A DNA stretch of 64,000 bases from an uncultured Candidatus Actinomarina sp. (lineage in GTDB: Bacteria; Actinomycetota; Acidimicrobiia; Actinomarinales; Actinomarinaceae), in contig CACFIX010000001.1 of the NCBI GenBank assembly GCA_902566515.1, forward strand, positions 32,220-96,219. The letters are read 5' to 3'. Made by a program: the position numbers and the translations under genes. Below are positions 6,282-60,823 of this stretch, piece by piece (positions within the stretch are counted from its first letter, which is position 1; each line of letters opens with the position of its first letter). The notes beneath the pieces were generated by a model that did not search any database, was not told the DNA's origin, and was given only the letters and a program-made list of their open reading frames with translations.

Positions 6282-6339
6282 GAAACAATAATAGTTTGAT
6301 ATTTTTTTTAGGTGGGTGCCTCATAAAGAGGCACCCGAG

Positions 6340-6678
6340 TTTTGTGAAACTATAAGCCGGATTCTGTATACGCAATGCGCATGATAATCATCCATCTTGT
6401 ATATTTGTTACCAAATATATCTAGCTACTTACCCGCAATTATTAACCGAGCAGATTAATTGCTTCTTAGTATTGCTCCTAGAGGGGTTTGCAAGCTAGTT
6501 TAATTACTTAAACTACTGGTGGTCTCTTACACCACCTTTTCACCCTTACTTGCGTTAACAAGCGGTATATTTTCTGTTGCACTTTCCGTCAATTACTTGC
6601 CTGGGAGTTACCCAGCTCTATGCTCTACGGAGTCCGGACTTTCCTCGATAAATCGCGATTATCCATCTCACACTTCTT
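6340..6678 (-). ncRNA. rnpB: RNase P RNA, bacterial type A
   Basis: Minus strand contains GAGGAAAGUCCGGACUC (P4/CR-I), GGGUGAAAAGGUGGUGUAAGAGACCACCAG (P10-12 region), ACAGAAUCCGGCUUAUAGUUUCAC (CR-V plus 3' P1 strand). The region is GC-rich in an AT-rich genome; boundaries approximate. Confidence 0.8.
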
Positions 6679-30600: not shown

Positions 30601-30948
30601 ATGGCGTTAAACAAAAAAGAACAAGAAATTTTAAACCAAATTGAGCAAGAACTTTTGAAAGAAGATCCTGAACTTGCGAACACAGTAAAAGAATCAACTC
30701 TTTCCAAATACACAAGAACAAGAGCTGTTGTTTCATTTTTTATTTTTTGTATTGGCTTTTTAACTATGTTTAGTACCTATATCATTCAACCAACTTTAGC
30801 CTTAGCAGGTTTTGTTATTATGGCATTGTCTGCATACATTTTTGTATCCAATACAAGAGCACTTTTAAGCGCTGAAAATATTTCTGAATGGAATTTCAAA
30901 CAGGTATATAAAATTTTAAGAAACAAAGATACCTCTAGACAAAATTAA
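30601..30948 (+). CDS. DUF3040-family membrane protein
   Basis: MALNKKEQEILNQIEQEL... N-terminus plus two TM; family characteristic of actinobacteria. Confidence 0.55.
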   Translation: MALNKKEQEILNQIEQELLKEDPELANTVKESTLSKYTRTRAVVSFFIFCIGFLTMFSTYIIQPTLALAGFVIMALSAYIFVSNTRALLSAENISEWNFKQVYKILRNKDTSRQN

Positions 30949-30998
30949 ATCTTTAAATTAAATTAGATATACATCGATTTTTTTATAGGAGTAAGGTT

Positions 30999-31490
30999 TT
31001 GAAAAAAGATGCATTTACATCTAAGCAAGCTTGTTATTTATCTGGCTGTACATCTCACCAATTAAGGTATTGGGACAAAGTGAATCTTGTTAACCCTTCA
31101 ATACAATCATCAAATGGAAAACCCGGTGTTCCAAAGATGTATTCTTTCAGAGATATTGTTGCATTAAGAGTAATTAAAACTTTACTTGATAATGGAATGA
31201 GTATTCAAAGAGTAAGAAGAGCTTGGAGATACTTATCAAAAAATGGAGATTTGACCCAACATTTGACCGAAGTTAAATTAGTTTCTGACGGAAGCACAAT
31301 TTATTCTGTAGGTGATGAAGAGGTGTTCGATGCTCTTAAAAATGGACAACTTACATTTTTTGAGACAATTGATAGTATTACAAAAGAAGTTAAAGAAGAT
31401 GTATCAAAATTTGAATTAGATAAAGAAAGATTTTTAAATTTATTGACTAAAGTAGAGGATGATGTACTTAGTCAACAATTGCAAGCATAA
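30999..31490 (+). CDS. MerR-family HTH transcriptional regulator
   Basis: TTG start; N-terminal HTH ...KQACYLSGCTSHQLRYWDKVNLVNP...YSFRDIVALRVIKTL. Confidence 0.5.
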   Translation: MKKDAFTSKQACYLSGCTSHQLRYWDKVNLVNPSIQSSNGKPGVPKMYSFRDIVALRVIKTLLDNGMSIQRVRRAWRYLSKNGDLTQHLTEVKLVSDGSTIYSVGDEEVFDALKNGQLTFFETIDSITKEVKEDVSKFELDKERFLNLLTKVEDDVLSQQLQA

Positions 31491-31512
31491 AATTTTTACC
31501 TCATATTAATTT

Positions 31513-32025
31513 ATGGAAAAATATCGTAGCCATAGAACTCTTATTCTGAATTCCACTTACCAGCCGCTGTCTGTTGTTCCATATAACAGAGCAATATCAT
31601 TATTAATCAACAAAAAAATAAATTCCATAAACGATTCTGAAATAATATTTAAATCAGAAAATAAACAAATTGCTTTACCTAATGTTGCATTATTGAACTA
31701 TTTTGTCAATGCACCTTATTCAAGGAGAGTTGCCTTGAATAAGGAAAATATCTTCATAAGAGATTTTTATACTTGTCAATATTGTGGGGACCAAGCAGAA
31801 TCGGTAGACCATATCATTCCCAAATCTAAAGGAGGAGAGCATATCTGGGATAATGTTGTTGCTTGTTGTAAAAAATGTAATTTAATTAAAGCTGATAAAG
31901 ATCTCACAGATACAAGGTTAAAATTAAAAAGAAATCCTCAACAACCTGTCGGAGCTTTTTGGATAAAAACAATCGTTGGTTCAAATCCGGATCCATCATG
32001 GGAAGAATATTTAATTTCAGCATAA
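31513..32025 (+). CDS. HNH endonuclease
   Basis: CQYCG...DHIIPKSKGGEHIWDNVVACCKKCNLIK HNH motif. Confidence 0.75.
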   Translation: MEKYRSHRTLILNSTYQPLSVVPYNRAISLLINKKINSINDSEIIFKSENKQIALPNVALLNYFVNAPYSRRVALNKENIFIRDFYTCQYCGDQAESVDHIIPKSKGGEHIWDNVVACCKKCNLIKADKDLTDTRLKLKRNPQQPVGAFWIKTIVGSNPDPSWEEYLISA

Positions 32026-32043
32026 AAAAATTTTTATCAAAAA

Positions 32044-32088
32044 GTGTTGCAAAGTGGTAGATAGTGTCATATAATGTGTAAAAGTGGT
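32044..32088 (+). promoter_or_regulatory. mraZ promoter (TTGCAA-17 bp-TATAAT) overlapped by five phased AWAGTGKT repeats (candidate MraZ operator)
   Basis: GTG cores at 32044, 32054, 32064, 32076, 32084 (about 10-bp phasing); -35 at 32047-32052, -10 at 32070-32075; SD AGGCGGAG before the GTG start at 32112. Confidence 0.45.
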
Positions 32089-32111
32089 TCAAGGCACGAA
32101 AGGCGGAGAAA

Positions 32112-32537
32112 GTGTTCCTTGGTGAGTTTCAACATACAATGGACTCTAAAGGTAGGGTTGTAATACCATCCAAGTTTAGAGACGAGCTTCAACAGGGCTG
32201 TGTGATCACCAAGGGGCAAGACAACTGTCTCCAAATACTAACTAAATCAAATTGGGAAGAAGAGGCAATGAAAATGGCTTCACTTCCATCCACAGACAGA
32301 ACATCAAGGCAATTAAGAAGGGCTTTATTCAGTGGTGCTATTGATGTAAAAATAGACTCAGCAGGAAGGGTACAAATACCTGAAAACTTACGAGTATATA
32401 GCGGAATTGACATCAATGAAGAAGTTACTGTAACGGGTTCAGGTCCTGTTGTGGAAGTTTGGTCAACTAGAAGTTGGAAGAAAATTCAAAGTGAAGCTGA
32501 TCGAGCCTTTGCAAATATAAACGAAGTGAAAGGATAA
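32112..32537 (+). CDS. mraZ: Transcriptional regulator MraZ
   Basis: MFLGEFQHTMDSKGRVVIP... duplicated SpoVT/AbrB-like halves. Confidence 0.9.
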   Translation: MFLGEFQHTMDSKGRVVIPSKFRDELQQGCVITKGQDNCLQILTKSNWEEEAMKMASLPSTDRTSRQLRRALFSGAIDVKIDSAGRVQIPENLRVYSGIDINEEVTVTGSGPVVEVWSTRSWKKIQSEADRAFANINEVKG

Positions 32538-32540
32538 GTT

Positions 32541-32627
32541 CATAGCCAGCTCTCTAGACAACTAAATTGGAACACCCTTACTCCGCCCAACTTTCCAATT
32601 GGTGCCAGTGCTAGAGAGCTGGGTATG
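32541..32627 (+). promoter_or_regulatory. GC-rich nested inverted repeat spanning the mraZ-rsmH gap and the rsmH start codon
   Basis: Outer 17-bp arms CATAGCCAGCTCTCTAG / CTAGAGAGCTGGGTATG (1 mismatch); inner 8-bp AATTGGAA / TTCCAATT; right arm includes the rsmH ATG. Confidence 0.4.
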
Positions 32628-33539
32628 AATAACAACAGGGTAGGATACTTAAAGCATAGCGGAGTGATGATATCCGAAGTTAATAAAATAGTTTCTAATT
32701 CACCTGCAGGAATATTTGTAGATGCTACTTATGGTTATGGTTCGCATTTTAACTACTTAAAACAAAAGAACAGCCATCTTGAATTTATTGGTATAGATAG
32801 AGATTTAGAAGCAGTTAAGAATTCCTCTGATGAAGTCTTAAATATAAAATTTTCAAACATTACTGATATATTATCTATTAAAAAAATTTTGAATATATCA
32901 GGAGTTTTCTATGACTTTGGTATTTCCTCACATCAAATTGATAACCCAGATAGAGGATTTTCATATTTGAATACGGGACCACTAGACATGAGAATGAACC
33001 AAGATGACAAAATTACTGCAGATGAAATATTAAATCAATTTGAAGAGGAAGATATTGCAAATATTTTGTATAAATATTCTGGTGAAAAAAATTCTCGTAA
33101 AATAGCAAAAGCAATTTCTGACTCAAGACCATTAAAATCTACCGAAGATTTTTCTAACGTTTTGAAAAACGTATTAGGAAAACAGAATCCAAAATATATA
33201 AATCAGACAATAAAAAGATGTTTTCAAGCAATAAGAATTTATGTAAATAATGAACTTGAAGAGATTACTTTATCGATAAATAAAATTAAAAACTTTATTA
33301 AACCTGGTGGTGTAATTGTTTGTATTACCTATCACTCTCTTGAAGACAAAATAGTTAAAGATATTTTTAATGATTTAACTGTTAAATGTATTTGCAATCC
33401 GAGAATTCCAATTTGCAGTTGTAATACGATTCAAAAATTTAAATTTGGTAAAAATAAAAAATTATTTCCTTCAGATGATGAAATCAATAAAAATTCAAGA
33501 TCAGCTTCAGCTATTTTGAGATATGTGGTGAAAATATGA
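32625..33539 (+). CDS. rsmH: 16S rRNA (cytosine1402-N4)-methyltransferase
   Basis: MraW family; SAM-binding DATYGYGSH... and FDFGISSHQID motifs. Confidence 0.9.
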   Translation: MNNNRVGYLKHSGVMISEVNKIVSNSPAGIFVDATYGYGSHFNYLKQKNSHLEFIGIDRDLEAVKNSSDEVLNIKFSNITDILSIKKILNISGVFYDFGISSHQIDNPDRGFSYLNTGPLDMRMNQDDKITADEILNQFEEEDIANILYKYSGEKNSRKIAKAISDSRPLKSTEDFSNVLKNVLGKQNPKYINQTIKRCFQAIRIYVNNELEEITLSINKIKNFIKPGGVIVCITYHSLEDKIVKDIFNDLTVKCICNPRIPICSCNTIQKFKFGKNKKLFPSDDEINKNSRSASAILRYVVKI

Positions 33540-33856
33540 AATTTAGAAATATTATGTTTCTAATGGCAAGTGTTTTTATTTTGTCAATGCTTTCAGATTT
33601 GTATTTCAACTTAAAAATTAATGAATCGTCTAGTGATTTAGAGCAAATAAATAATGAAATTCTAATACTTCAAATTGAAAAGTCTAAAGTTCATTTAAGA
33701 CATACTGAAGAATTTTCAATTGGAAATATTGAAAAACTTTCAAAGGAAATTAATTTTAAAAGATTAGATATTCACAAGAAAAATTTTGATTTGGTAAGAC
33801 CCTACAAATTGATTGAAGATTCTAATCCTGTAATTGTTATGGGTTTTGGAAAATGA
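33536..33856 (+). CDS. ftsL: Cell division protein FtsL-like (small bitopic protein)
   Basis: 106 aa, one TM plus coiled coil; position between rsmH and ftsI. Confidence 0.5.
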   Translation: MKFRNIMFLMASVFILSMLSDLYFNLKINESSSDLEQINNEILILQIEKSKVHLRHTEEFSIGNIEKLSKEINFKRLDIHKKNFDLVRPYKLIEDSNPVIVMGFGK

Positions 33857-35529
33857 TCAATTTTCAAAGATTAAAAAATTATTTTCTAATCTTTGTAGTG
33901 TTTTTTACAGTTTTAGGTTCTTCTTATGTTTTTATATCAACAGTTTATGAACTTCAATTTACAAATTCTGATTATTTTAAAAACCAAGCTTTATCTTATC
34001 GAGTTAAAACTGAAAAGTTAAAAGCGTCAAGAGGCAATATTTATGACAAAAATCTTTTGGTATTATCTTCAAGTTCTCGGTCTTACAATATTGGAGTTTT
34101 TCCAACAAAAATTGACAATTTAAATGAAGTAGTAAATTCACTATCTGCAATATTATTTATAGAAAAAGATTTATTACATAAAAGGATAATATCCACAACT
34201 AACTTTTTTTATCTTGATAGAAATATAGATTATGAAAGAGGAGAAGAAATAAAAAGTTGGAATCTTGAAGGGGTTGTTCTAGAACCTTCATTTAATCGTG
34301 TAATACACACTAATTCAGTTTCAAAAATTATAGGAAAAGTTGATCCTGATGAAAATGGCATAGAAGGGCTGGAGCTTTATTTTGACTCATCACTTAAAGG
34401 AATAGATGGTGAAATTAAATATGAAGCTTCACCGAATGGAAAAATTATTCCTCAAGCACCTATTACAACTATTCAACCAACTCACGGAAAAGATTTAATT
34501 TTGACACTAGATTCAGAATTGCAATTTGTAAGTGAAAATCTATGTTCTGAGGCGTTAGAAATAACCGAAGCATTAAATTGCTCTATTGTTTTTGCTAACG
34601 CAAATACAGGAGAAATATTAATTGCTGCCGAAAAAAGTGGATATCTTGAAAATAGTTTAAACATAGACCTTTTGAGTATTAGAGCTCAGTACGAGCCTGG
34701 TTCTTCATTAAAAATCTTTTCTATAGGTGCAGGTATCGAACAAGGATTATTTGATGAAAATACTAAATATTTAGTTGACGATAAAATCGAAATTATAGAG
34801 GGATCCTGTGCCAAAAATTATGATGGTCTAAAAGGATGTTACAGAGATTTCTTAAAGCATGACCCGTATGAAATGTCTATTAAGGAAATAATAGAGCGCT
34901 CATCAAATGTTGGGACAATTCTTGCAACCAAAGATTTGGACATAAATTATTTAGAAGACTATCTTAATAAATTTGGTTTTGGTGAAAGAACAGGCGTGGA
35001 ATTGACCGGTGAGATAAAGGGAAGTTTCACTGAATATAACATTTGTAAAACCTGTTTAAGTTCACTATCAATCGGTTACTCAGTTAATGTAACGCAACTT
35101 CAAATGGTCAAAGCATATAGTATTATTGCAAATGGTGGTAAGAATATAAATTTGTCATTAGTTAAAAAACCTACAGAAAGTTCGAATCTTCAACAGGTAA
35201 TAAGTGTTGAAATGTCTGAAAGACTGAGGAATCTCTTAATAAATGTTGTAGAAGGTGTTAACGGAACAGGAAAGTCATTGAAACTTGAAAATTATATAAT
35301 TGGAGGAAAGACTGGGACTAGTAGAACCCATATTGAGGGAGATGGCTATTCAGATTTTAGATTTAATACTTCTTTTACTGGATTTATTGAAACATTAGAA
35401 GGACCTGTTGTTGGATCAGTTATTTTATGGGGAGCTTCTGTTAACCCAGCATCTGAATACGTTACGGGAGGATCAACTGCTGCTCCGATATTTAAAACAA
35501 TTGTCAGCAACCTAGTACCAGGAGAGTAA
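33853..35529 (+). CDS. ftsI: Peptidoglycan D,D-transpeptidase (class B PBP, FtsI-like)
   Basis: SSLK (SxxK), SSN, KTG motifs in order; N-terminal TM anchor. Confidence 0.85.
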   Translation: MINFQRLKNYFLIFVVFFTVLGSSYVFISTVYELQFTNSDYFKNQALSYRVKTEKLKASRGNIYDKNLLVLSSSSRSYNIGVFPTKIDNLNEVVNSLSAILFIEKDLLHKRIISTTNFFYLDRNIDYERGEEIKSWNLEGVVLEPSFNRVIHTNSVSKIIGKVDPDENGIEGLELYFDSSLKGIDGEIKYEASPNGKIIPQAPITTIQPTHGKDLILTLDSELQFVSENLCSEALEITEALNCSIVFANANTGEILIAAEKSGYLENSLNIDLLSIRAQYEPGSSLKIFSIGAGIEQGLFDENTKYLVDDKIEIIEGSCAKNYDGLKGCYRDFLKHDPYEMSIKEIIERSSNVGTILATKDLDINYLEDYLNKFGFGERTGVELTGEIKGSFTEYNICKTCLSSLSIGYSVNVTQLQMVKAYSIIANGGKNINLSLVKKPTESSNLQQVISVEMSERLRNLLINVVEGVNGTGKSLKLENYIIGGKTGTSRTHIEGDGYSDFRFNTSFTGFIETLEGPVVGSVILWGASVNPASEYVTGGSTAAPIFKTIVSNLVPGE

Positions 35530-36923
35530 TGAATAAAATTTACAATTATGACCAATATTTGGGAATGAATTTAGATTTTTCGTTAATTGTAAATTCAACA
35601 CTTGACCTAAAACCTGGTTCAATTTTATGTATTGATAATGAAGATATTGAAAAGTTAGATTATTTGATAAAAGAAGCATTGAATAAAGATGTAGACAAAA
35701 TTTTAACTAGTTCAAAATCCAAAATTTCCGATGAAAAGGTATATAGATTCGAAGAATATGAAAAAGTTTTTGAAGATATTTTGAAGAACATAAATCCTAA
35801 TTTTAAAAATAAAACATTTTTTGGTATTACAGGAACAAATGGAAAAACAACTACTGCTCATTTACTAAACTCTCTACTTGGAGATTCCTCAATTTTTGTA
35901 GGAACTATTGACGAAGATAATCTTTTTGAATTTACAAAAGAGGAACATTTAACAACACCAAAACTATTTAATCTTGTAAAAATGTTGTCCTTAGTTGATA
36001 GAGATGTAAGCAATGTAGTGCTTGAGGTTTCTTCACATGCTTTAGATCAAAAAAGATTAAATGGTTTATATTTCAAAATGTCTGGATTTACAAATTTAAG
36101 CCAAGATCATTTAGATTACCACAACACAATGGATGAGTATTTTGAAGCAAAAACAAAGCTATTCAATAAACAAACTTCAGAAGAGTTTGCATACATAGTT
36201 TCAAACTATGGTGAAAAATTAAATAAAATTTATGATTCTAAAGGTTTTTCTATTGGCAATACAAAGAATAATAATGTTCAATTAAATTCATATACTATAG
36301 ATTCAATTGATTTTGATATTGATGGAATAAATGTGAATTCAAAACTTTACTTATCAGGTCCAGAAATTATTTACAATTTTCTATTGGCTTTTAGCATGGC
36401 TTATTTTTCAAAAGTTAAAAACATTAATGAGCTTAAAGATCAAATACCCCTTCTAAAAAATCCAAAAGGAAGATACGAAATTATCAAATATACAAAAGGT
36501 GATATCATCGTAGACTATTCCCATACACCTGAGGCAATAGAAAAAGTGATTAAATACACAAAAGAAAGATATAAAAAAGACGTAATTGTAGTTTTTGGAG
36601 CAGGAGGGAATCGTGATAAGTCAAAAAGAAAATTTATGGGTACAGCATCTCAAAATGCTGAAAAAATAATTATTACTAACGATAACCCAAGGAAAGAAGA
36701 TCAACTTGATATATCAAAACAAATACTTGATGGAATTGATCTTAAGAAAAACGTAGAGATCATCATAGATAGAAGAGAAGCTATAAGCAAAGGTGTAAAA
36801 CTTCTAGATGGTAAAAGCACACTACTAGTATTAGGTAAAGGACATGAAAAATTTCAAGAAATAGGTGATGAATTGTATGAATTTGATGATGTTGAAGTTG
36901 TTAGAGAACAGATAAGCATCTAA
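35529..36923 (+). CDS. murE: UDP-MurNAc-L-Ala-D-Glu:meso-diaminopimelate ligase
   Basis: GITGTNGKTTTAHL P-loop; DNPR motif (TNDNPRKED) diagnostic of DAP-adding MurE. Confidence 0.85.
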   Translation: MNKIYNYDQYLGMNLDFSLIVNSTLDLKPGSILCIDNEDIEKLDYLIKEALNKDVDKILTSSKSKISDEKVYRFEEYEKVFEDILKNINPNFKNKTFFGITGTNGKTTTAHLLNSLLGDSSIFVGTIDEDNLFEFTKEEHLTTPKLFNLVKMLSLVDRDVSNVVLEVSSHALDQKRLNGLYFKMSGFTNLSQDHLDYHNTMDEYFEAKTKLFNKQTSEEFAYIVSNYGEKLNKIYDSKGFSIGNTKNNNVQLNSYTIDSIDFDIDGINVNSKLYLSGPEIIYNFLLAFSMAYFSKVKNINELKDQIPLLKNPKGRYEIIKYTKGDIIVDYSHTPEAIEKVIKYTKERYKKDVIVVFGAGGNRDKSKRKFMGTASQNAEKIIITNDNPRKEDQLDISKQILDGIDLKKNVEIIIDRREAISKGVKLLDGKSTLLVLGKGHEKFQEIGDELYEFDDVEVVREQISI

Positions 36924-60741: not shown

Positions 60742-60823
60742 TACCCGGAGGGGGAGTCGAACCCCCACATCCGAAGATACTGGATTTTGAATCCAGCGCG
60801 TCTGCCAATTCCGCCATCCGGGC
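60742..60823 (-). tRNA. tRNA-Leu (anticodon CAA)
   Basis: Cloverleaf on minus strand: acceptor GCCCGGA/UCCGGGU, anticodon stem CUGGA/UCCAG with loop UUCAAAA, long variable arm, T-arm GGGGGUUCGACUCCCCC; CCA not encoded. Confidence 0.9.

Follow-up and report, generated by a model that had tools for sequence, protein, structure and literature searches.

What does the short spacer between mraZ and rsmH encode in Candidatus Actinomarina, and what follows for rsmH from the fact that one arm of an inverted repeat in this spacer runs over its start codon? The locus lies in a 64,000-nucleotide stretch of DNA from an uncultured Ca. Actinomarina sp. (contig CACFIX010000001.1), and this whole 64-kilobase (kb) stretch is termed the window below, with positions counted from its first letter. 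Within Ca. Actinomarina the spacer comprises 87 nucleotides (nt), all of which are occupied by the element studied here. The element as a whole is ~93 nt in length in this genome (32538-32630, + strand) and ~107 nt in the relatives with GC-rich genomes. As detailed below, the mraZ-rsmH spacer encodes a structured RNA of the sense strand of the operon mRNA and is not a chance palindrome. The best explanation we can offer, at a probability of roughly 0.6, is that the predicted hairpin acts as a cis-acting gate on the translation of rsmH and of the overlapping ftsL, ftsI and murE.

A structured RNA fills the mraZ-rsmH spacer

The repeat finder detected two arms of 19 nt (32539-32557 and 32611-32629) that are 95% complementary with a single G.G mismatch (32545/32623), and, nested within them, a perfect pair of 8 base pairs (bp; 32565-32572 and 32593-32600). 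The first-pass annotation, which was made from the letters of the window and a list of open reading frames (ORFs), had described a 17-bp inverted repeat with one mismatch enclosing a perfect 8-bp repeat, and this description was borne out with slightly longer arms. The 17-mer and its partner were the sole two matches in the 64 kb at up to 3 mismatches (chance expectation, 0.03). The 3' arm includes a GGG (32621-32623) and the ATG of rsmH (32625-32627), just as had been proposed. The annotation also regarded the repeat as a GC-rich segment in AT-rich DNA. The G+C content indeed peaks over the element (0.46) and falls to ~0.2-0.3 downstream in rsmH, but the description applies less well on the upstream side, where mraZ is at 0.36-0.44.

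The RNA transcribed from the + strand was predicted to fold at -39.0 to -39.3 kcal/mol. Relative to dinucleotide shuffles this corresponds to z = -4.9 to -6.5, none of the 200 shuffles being as stable (0/200). A comparison with shuffled controls had been suggested in the first-pass annotation. The minus strand folds too (z = -3.2). When five divergent representatives were folded singly, all arrived at the same hairpin, with energies of -39 to -61 kcal/mol and z-scores of -4.5 to -7.9.

The supported architecture consists of helices P1 and P2, an asymmetric internal loop with a bulge on the 3' side, P3a (GCCA/UGGC), P3b (GGAAG/CUUCC) and a terminal loop of 14-20 nt. In this genome, the 5' strand of P1 is GUUCAUA (32538-32544), which pairs with UAUGAAU (32624-32630) holding the rsmH start codon (32625-32627); the helix appears in the minimum-free-energy folds and is backed by covarying pairs across the relatives. 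P2 has a pyrimidine run on its 5' side and a purine run on its 3' side, its strands being CCAGCUCUCUAG (32546-32557) and CUAGAGAGCUGG (32611-32622), and is indicated by both the folds and compensatory changes. The 5' strand of P3, ACUA plus AAUUGGAA (32561-32572), contains one half of the 8-bp repeat and is the counterpart of P3a GCCA and P3b GGAAG in the GC-rich relatives, while its 3' strand, UUCCAAUU plus GGU (32593-32603), was recovered by the repeat finder, the covariation in the alignment and the folds. The terminal loop (32573-32592), with an invariant core CCCUUACUCCGCCC at 32575-32588, and the 3'-side bulge GCCAG(UG) (32604-32610; GCCAGCGCU in the GC-rich relatives) are unpaired in the folds of the window. 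All of these segments are on the + strand. P1 and P2 together make 19 pairs here, stacked on P3, and 25-27 pairs in the GC-rich relatives, and the folds of two of the latter (L041 and L027) add a mini-stem of 3 bp in the terminal loop. The element exceeds what the first-pass annotation described: it takes up the whole spacer, its helix P1 continues over codons 2-5 of rsmH in the GC-rich relatives, and, beyond what simple occlusion by a stem would require, it has a 14-nt loop that is invariant as well as a conserved bulge on the 3' side.

Related loci were collected in three ways. A MraZ-anchored scan with one genome per species yielded 26 Ca. Actinomarina loci (MraZ 87-98% identical) and three loci of GC-rich Acidimicrobiia (47%), together with loci of Clostridia and Actinomycetes. 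For an unbiased sampling, MraZ homologues at 41-78% identity were taken from a protein database and their contigs were fetched, which gave 13 loci from 10 proteins, and all of them (13/13) carry the element. Altogether, the element was found once per locus, at the mraZ-rsmH junction, in 43/43 MraZ-anchored loci of Acidimicrobiia (41/41 + 2/2). Being present as a single copy in the 64-kb window and in each of 51 loci, it does not behave as a dispersed repeat of the repetitive extragenic palindrome or miniature inverted-repeat transposable element type (REP/MITE). Finally, a metagenome scan by a loop-plus-bulge pattern, built to skip Actinomarina, returned at least 120 stretches. Among the 120 matches listed, ~100 are true elements, about a dozen arose by chance and a few are truncated at contig ends; the elements with enough flanking sequence run directly into the N-terminus of rsmH. 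As the pattern fixes the loop and the bulge GCCAG, these matches are uninformative on loop and bulge conservation, for which the 43 protein-anchored loci serve as the unbiased set.

Among the 26 Actinomarina species, 3/87 sites of the spacer vary and the pairwise diversity is 0.008. In the same species, 112/141 third codon positions of mraZ vary with a pairwise diversity of 0.328 (0.034 at second positions), and the third codon positions of rsmH reach 0.436. The element is the most conserved part of the locus and is ~40 times less variable than the synonymous sites among Actinomarina species. The three distant GC-rich loci possess an equal architecture and loop, and the ATG at the equal place in the 3' arm, with changed stem sequences (CCCCCCGG/CCGGGGGG and CUCCUCGG/CCGAGGAG versus CUCUCUAG/CUAGAGAG here). 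The loop core reads CCCUU[A/U]CUCCGCC[C/U] in all of the 43 protein-anchored loci and is identical throughout the Actinomarinales loci; the L027 group has U as the sixth base, and in L170 the core ends with U. The 3' bulge is conserved across the protein-anchored loci as well, with ACCAG in L170.

The stems change in a compensatory manner. In P2, CUCUCU/AGAGAG is replaced by CCCCCC/GGGGGG, CUCCUC/GAGGAG or CUCCCU/AGGGAG, and P3a is closed by G-C in 70 sequences and by A-U in 27, with no sequence breaking the pair. More compensatory swaps in P2 and P3 were found in two Actinomarinales genera with a MraZ identity of 71%, and one locus (L165) shows an A-U to U-A swap in P3. In the alignment based on our covariance model, 91.7% of the cells are paired versus 34-52% when the partners are slid by 1-3 columns, and 20/34 pairs have changes on both sides. 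The MAFFT alignment gave similar figures, with 89.4% of the cells paired versus 35-48% with slid partners and 20/36 pairs changing on both sides. Double-change cells in the model-based alignment number 303 versus 80 +/- 9.5 in shuffles that ignore phylogeny, and 0/500 of these shuffles reach 303. By way of such changes the fold is kept from genomes of ~30% G+C to those of ~70% G+C. The first-pass annotation had made the RNA stem stand or fall with the conservation and compensatory changes of its arms, and in 100+ related sequences the arms are both conserved and covarying.

As for the strand, G.U/U.G cells (225) outnumber A.C/C.A cells (72) in the alignment, and the covariance model scores 64-127 bits on the + strand versus 19-40 bits on the - strand. 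The conserved terminal loop is non-palindromic. The excess of G.U pairs and the sense-strand scores of the model tell us that the structure belongs to the mRNA strand.

Two other pairings were considered and set aside. The alternative inner helix CGCC/GGYG proposed by RNAalifold conflicts with P3a, of which the closing pair covaries cleanly. A pairing between AGCG of the bulge and the 3'-terminal CGCU of the loop occurs in two states only, amounting to one evolutionary event, and it is broken in L007.

The rsmH start codon within the helix and its proposed gating

The bases of the rsmH AUG have a predicted probability of being unpaired of 0.001 or less in a 250-nt context, i.e., a predicted pairing probability of at least 0.999. 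Over positions -15 to +5, the mean predicted unpaired probability is 0.079 for rsmH versus 0.24-0.56 for seven neighbouring genes. The purine run in the 3' strand of P2, AGAGAG here and GGGGGG in the GC-rich relatives, ends 6 nt before the AUG, and from this spacing we infer that it may be the equivalent of a Shine-Dalgarno (SD) sequence. These predictions agree with the earlier proposal of an RNA stem that would occlude the rsmH initiation region.

The hairpin is preceded by mraZ (32112-32537, + strand; GTG start and TAA stop at 32535-32537 from the ORF list, Pfam MraZ at 1.7e-31). On its 3' side and on the same strand, rsmH (also mraW; 32625-33539, Pfam Methyltransf_5 of the MraW/RsmH family at 7.7e-81 with the domain from residue 10) is followed by an ftsL-like ORF (33536-33856), ftsI (33853-35529) and murE (35529-36923). 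Judging from the ORF coordinates, the successive genes overlap by 4 nt (33536-33539), 4 nt (33853-33856) and 1 nt (35529). Such overlaps suggest that the four genes form a translationally coupled chain. Because of the overlaps behind rsmH, initiation at rsmH likely governs the flow into the whole chain.

The position of the mraZ stop codon bears on how the helix might be opened. In this genome the stop codon ends 1 base ahead of P1. Two further Actinomarinales genera have a UAG as the stop codon of mraZ, and this UAG lies within the 5' arm of the hairpin (L162:2450-2462 and L165:2114-2126; also in L166). Since the stop is 1 base before P1 here and inside P1 in the sister genera, the ribosome terminating on mraZ is the likeliest opener in this lineage. 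The first-pass annotation had suggested that the stem uncouples the translation of rsmH, ftsL and ftsI from that of mraZ. For this genome the suggestion may point in the wrong direction, as a stop codon that adjoins the helix, and falls inside it in close relatives, favours coupling.

We propose the following mechanism. At equilibrium, the helix would lock the translation initiation region of rsmH, with the AUG held in P1 and the SD-like purine run in P2. Free ribosomes would be blocked from the rsmH start and, via the 4-nt and 1-nt overlaps, from ftsL, ftsI and murE. Because a helix of this stability would not open unaided, expression would require that it be opened actively. In Ca. Actinomarina, a ribosome finishing mraZ would open P1 together with some of P2 and then pass on to the AUG of rsmH, and this translational coupling is most likely the mode of opening in Actinomarinales. 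In the relatives whose spacers reach as much as 275 nt, cleavage of the ~27-bp helix by RNase III, or a factor on the invariant loop and bulge, would contribute. Whatever opens the hairpin would determine how much is made of the essential proteins for division and the cell wall that the rsmH, ftsL, ftsI and murE chain encodes.

Several points weigh against this proposal or temper the evidence for it. Firstly, the purine run AGAGAG of Actinomarina matches a Shine-Dalgarno sequence poorly. Secondly, the distance from the mraZ stop to the conserved CAG of P2 spans 1-275 nt (median 37) over 103 loci. Coupling to mraZ termination was rejected as the general mechanism on this ground, and the range implies that the ancestral or general mechanism is something other than such coupling. 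Thirdly, a simple occluding stem leaves the invariance of the loop and the 3' bulge, from 30% to 70% G+C genomes, unexplained. Fourthly, part of the loop and bulge conservation in the metagenome matches was imposed by the search pattern. Lastly, the shuffle control for double changes ignores phylogeny, and hence its 0/500 is not a probability, while an alignment made with our own covariance model leans toward structure; the control with slid partners and the MAFFT alignment are free of both weaknesses.

The proposed gate resembles hairpins that sequester a ribosome-binding site (RBS), namely those of the MS2 coat-replicase operator region, the lambda N leader and the Escherichia coli adhE leader, for which either translational coupling or RNase III provides the opening. 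As in these, a stable helix is predicted to bury a start codon and an SD-like run, its length suffices for RNase III, and in this genome the upstream cistron ends at its foot. The element differs from them in the addition of a sequence-invariant apical module, which those examples can do without, and in being known here from sequence and predicted fold.

Three minor observations concern the spacer and the start of rsmH. Four metagenome contigs (L048, L078, L140 and L146) have, between the mraZ stop and the element, spacers of 100-145 nt that are composed of short tandem and inverted repeats such as CCAGTTCCCAGTTCCCAGTTACCAGT and GAGTCAAGAGTCAAGAGTCGAGAGTCG. In L162 and L163, the gene caller began rsmH at an in-frame ATG within the element, which is probably a miscall. 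An upstream ORF was considered for the AUG in the GGAUGCC of many GC-rich relatives and rejected: this AUG is absent in the L027, L063 and L170 groups and in Actinomarina, and insertions or deletions in P3 break the frame.

Alternative readings of the hairpin

The alternative that survives best, and which we hold as tentative, is that the element is an RNase III processing site. The enzyme would cut the near-perfect helix (~20 bp here and ~27 bp in the GC-rich relatives) and thereby separate the mraZ message from that of rsmH. Such a cut could free the SD-like run and the AUG and so activate translation, destabilise the downstream message, or yield a stable small RNA consisting of the apical hairpin. 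The continuous helix of at least two turns, upheld by covariation, has the length of a ~20-bp RNase III substrate, and at -39 to -61 kcal/mol it is too stable for unaided opening. Activation by RNase III cleavage occurs in the lambda N and E. coli adhE leaders. According to PMC12957436, which cites Maeda 2016, RNase III acts on mraZ mRNA in Corynebacterium; the cleavage reported in C. glutamicum, however, falls in the coding region of mraZ and not in such an element. The 5' end of the C. glutamicum mraW transcript was mapped to 2,266,932, a position inside the classical mraW motif (2,267,021-2,266,916) and in its 3' part (PMC3890552). Instead of a transcription start, this end could mark a site of processing. 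Stable RNA fragments are produced from the mRNAs of the dcw operon (for cell division and the cell wall) in enterobacteria (PMC6156199). The E. coli decRNAs (PMC6156199) and UpsM of Rhodobacter sphaeroides (PMC5089854) are, like the element, conserved structured segments of dcw mRNA, and the element is more conserved than the nearby codons. In contrast to the element, they lie within coding regions or the mraZ 5' leader of Proteobacteria and have no sequence relation to it, and excision of the element would be a candidate process here. What RNase III fails to account for is the invariant loop, as the enzyme requires no specific loop sequence. On the whole, the RNase III reading overlaps with the translational gate and does not exclude it, and a role of RNase III in opening the predicted helix is plausible.

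The next alternative concerns identity rather than mechanism, i.e., that the element is a member of the mraW RNA motif (RF01746) that has drifted beyond recognition. The mraW motif is a three-stem hairpin with a CUUCCCC terminal loop that precedes mraW in Actinomycetales, with no assigned function (Weinberg et al., 2010; PMC2864571). The two are alike in that both occur in Actinomycetota, in the gap that separates mraZ from mraW/rsmH at the start of the dcw cluster, as a long hairpin with a C/U-rich terminal loop. The flanking genes are the same in all related loci, the element being directly upstream of mraW/rsmH in the actinobacterial dcw cluster, and a three-stem hairpin with variable internal loops (P1/P2, P3a and P3b) is present by both the folds and covariation, albeit this is a generic feature. 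Both also share CUUCC followed by GG(U/C)GCCAG. However, the shared pieces have swapped roles: CUUCC is the loop and GGUGCCAGG the stem in the classical mraW motif, whereas CUUCC is a stem and GCCAG a bulge in the element. The 14-nt loop core CCCUUACUCCGCCC, without CUUCCCC, is found in all of the 43 protein-anchored loci, the stem sequences and registers are different, and the conserved 3' bulge GCCAGCGCU is particular to the element. The start codon and the SD-like run lie inside the helix of the element, whereas in the rows read the start codon lies ~25-120 nt downstream of the mraW motif. Finally, the element belongs to Acidimicrobiia/Actinomarinales and the mraW motif to Actinomycetales.

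The searches failed in both directions. RF01746 gave no match at the gathering threshold (50 bits) or at E <=10 on the window or on the loci of 17 relatives, and as a positive control it detected the Actinomycetes locus L032 (26.6 bits, E = 0.0018), in which our own model R1 found nothing. With nhmmer, the element against the 20 RF01746 seed sequences and the reverse yielded nothing at E <=100, while seed against seed found all. No relevant family emerged from the gathering-level and permissive Rfam scans of the window and the relatives, and no description of the element was found in the literature searches. We regard the element as a distinct, undescribed RNA variant beside the mraW motif, absent from Rfam. 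Position, phylum and general shape are common to both, and each specific feature that could be tested sets them apart. Shared ancestry of the two is possible but rather unlikely in our judgement. The element adds a second, independent structure at the position of the mraW motif, and one of which the start codon inside the helix makes the regulatory logic readable. As a family absent from Rfam, it now has a seed alignment and a model that are usable for annotating Acidimicrobiia and marine metagenomes.

The invariance of the apical part leads to a third alternative, which we consider doubtful, namely a translational operator: a conserved protein would read the invariant loop and bulge and set the amount of rsmH, ftsL and ftsI. 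The binder could be RsmH itself, by analogy to ErmC and KsgA, which are autoregulated rRNA methyltransferases, or a ribosomal or cell-division protein. The loop CCCUUACUCCGCCC stays constant while the stems wholly change in composition, which would imply a partner that is invariant across the class. The loop stretch ACUCCGCCCG resembles 16S rRNA 1396-1405, which we take to be ACACCGCCCG and to contain C1402, the target of RsmH. This resemblance is not significant, as 8-28% of shuffled loops align equally well. Mimicry of 16S rRNA by the apical domain, of the C1402 region or of the 16S 3' end, likewise lacks significant support (p of 0.08-0.28 with the 16S sequence as we assume it). Furthermore, the substrate of RsmH is the assembled 30S subunit, and the enzyme is not known to act on naked RNA. 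The literature searches found no RsmH autoregulation and no regulation by an rsmH leader. The autoregulatory leaders of ErmC, KsgA and the ribosomal protein operators mimic an rRNA site. Like them, the element leads the gene of an rRNA-modifying enzyme and has an invariant single-stranded segment; unlike them, its 10-nt resemblance to the C1402 site is within chance.

More generally, the apical module (P3, the loop CCCUUACUCCGCCC and the bulge GCCAGCGCU) might be a recognition device for a conserved trans-acting partner, an idea that goes well beyond the gate itself and that we consider improbable in either of its two versions. In the first, RsmH or another ribosome or division factor would bind the module and autoregulate the head of the dcw operon, and, if it is RsmH, the loop may mimic the 16S C1402 region. 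In the second, RNase III would cut out the apical hairpin, giving a stable small RNA that, like the actinobacterial 6C RNA, might use its C-rich loop against G-rich targets. If either version is true, the element would be a new class of regulatory RNA linking ribosome modification or RNA processing to the dosage of cell-division genes, at work in one of the most abundant actinobacterial lineages of the ocean.

A riboswitch, in which the internal and terminal loops would form a pocket and a ligand such as S-adenosylmethionine, the cofactor of RsmH, would control the access to the start codon, is very improbable. The extreme conservation of the unpaired nucleotides would suit it, and so would the placement of the start codon in the basal helix, an arrangement shared by several single-hairpin riboswitches, but no Rfam riboswitch or aptamer family matches, and a basal helix of 19-27 pairs at -39 to -61 kcal/mol is far too stable for ligand switching. 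Moreover, the element has a single very stable fold, with no alternative fold supported by covariation.

The view that the repeat acts as a DNA palindrome bound by a protein such as MraZ, as an antisense RNA, as a mobile repeat or as a terminator is largely refuted: although the repeat is inverted and the minus strand folds as well, G.U exceeds A.C by 3 to 1, the sense score of the model is 2-3 times the antisense score, the loop is non-palindromic, the copy is single per 64 kb and per locus, neither a promoter nor a terminator match was found between mraZ and rsmH in a scan of 31950-32800, the stem is followed by AAUAACAACAGG and not by a T-run, and the repeats of MraZ type sit upstream of mraZ instead. 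The protein-binding palindrome mentioned as an alternative in the first-pass annotation is disfavoured by the covariation, the G.U pairs and the strand asymmetry of the scores.

The surroundings of the locus

The only promoter-like match near the locus is upstream of mraZ, where a sigma-70-like TTGCAA-17-TATAAT (32047-32075, + strand) lies amid AGTG(G/T)N repeats. Four AGTG(G/T)(T/C) repeats, ~10-11 nt apart, are found at 32030-32092 and overlap this promoter, and GTGGG repeats occur at the equivalent position in the GC-rich relatives. These repeats are probably the operator boxes of MraZ.

The 5' leader of mraZ, GTGGTTCAAGGCACGAAAGGCGGA(G/T)AAAGTG (32080-32111), is near-invariant across Actinomarinales, including L162, L165 and genera at 71% MraZ identity. 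In this leader, GGCGGAG (32102-32108) is the exact complement of CUCCGCC in the loop of the element, and outside Actinomarinales only a generic GGAG remains. The other two GGCGGAG sites of the window (4846 and 41011) are not Shine-Dalgarno sites, as neither is closely followed by a start codon. A pairing of the loop with the Shine-Dalgarno sequence of mraZ was rejected, as the duplex between the loop and the translation initiation region is no better than in shuffles (mean z = +0.39 over 83 distinct loci).

At the gathering level, the Rfam matches in the window are a bacterial RNase P RNA class A (272 bits; 6337-6674, - strand) and a tRNA (60742-60823, - strand) only. Further upstream of mraZ, the order of the genes for DUF3040, a MerR-family regulator and an HNH endonuclease (30601-32025) is kept across Actinomarinales (L161-L166). 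NCBI places Ca. Actinomarina in the class Actinomycetes, while the shared element and the MraZ similarity link it to metagenome-assembled genomes labelled Acidimicrobiia. The latter link agrees with the placement of Ca. Actinomarina in GTDB.

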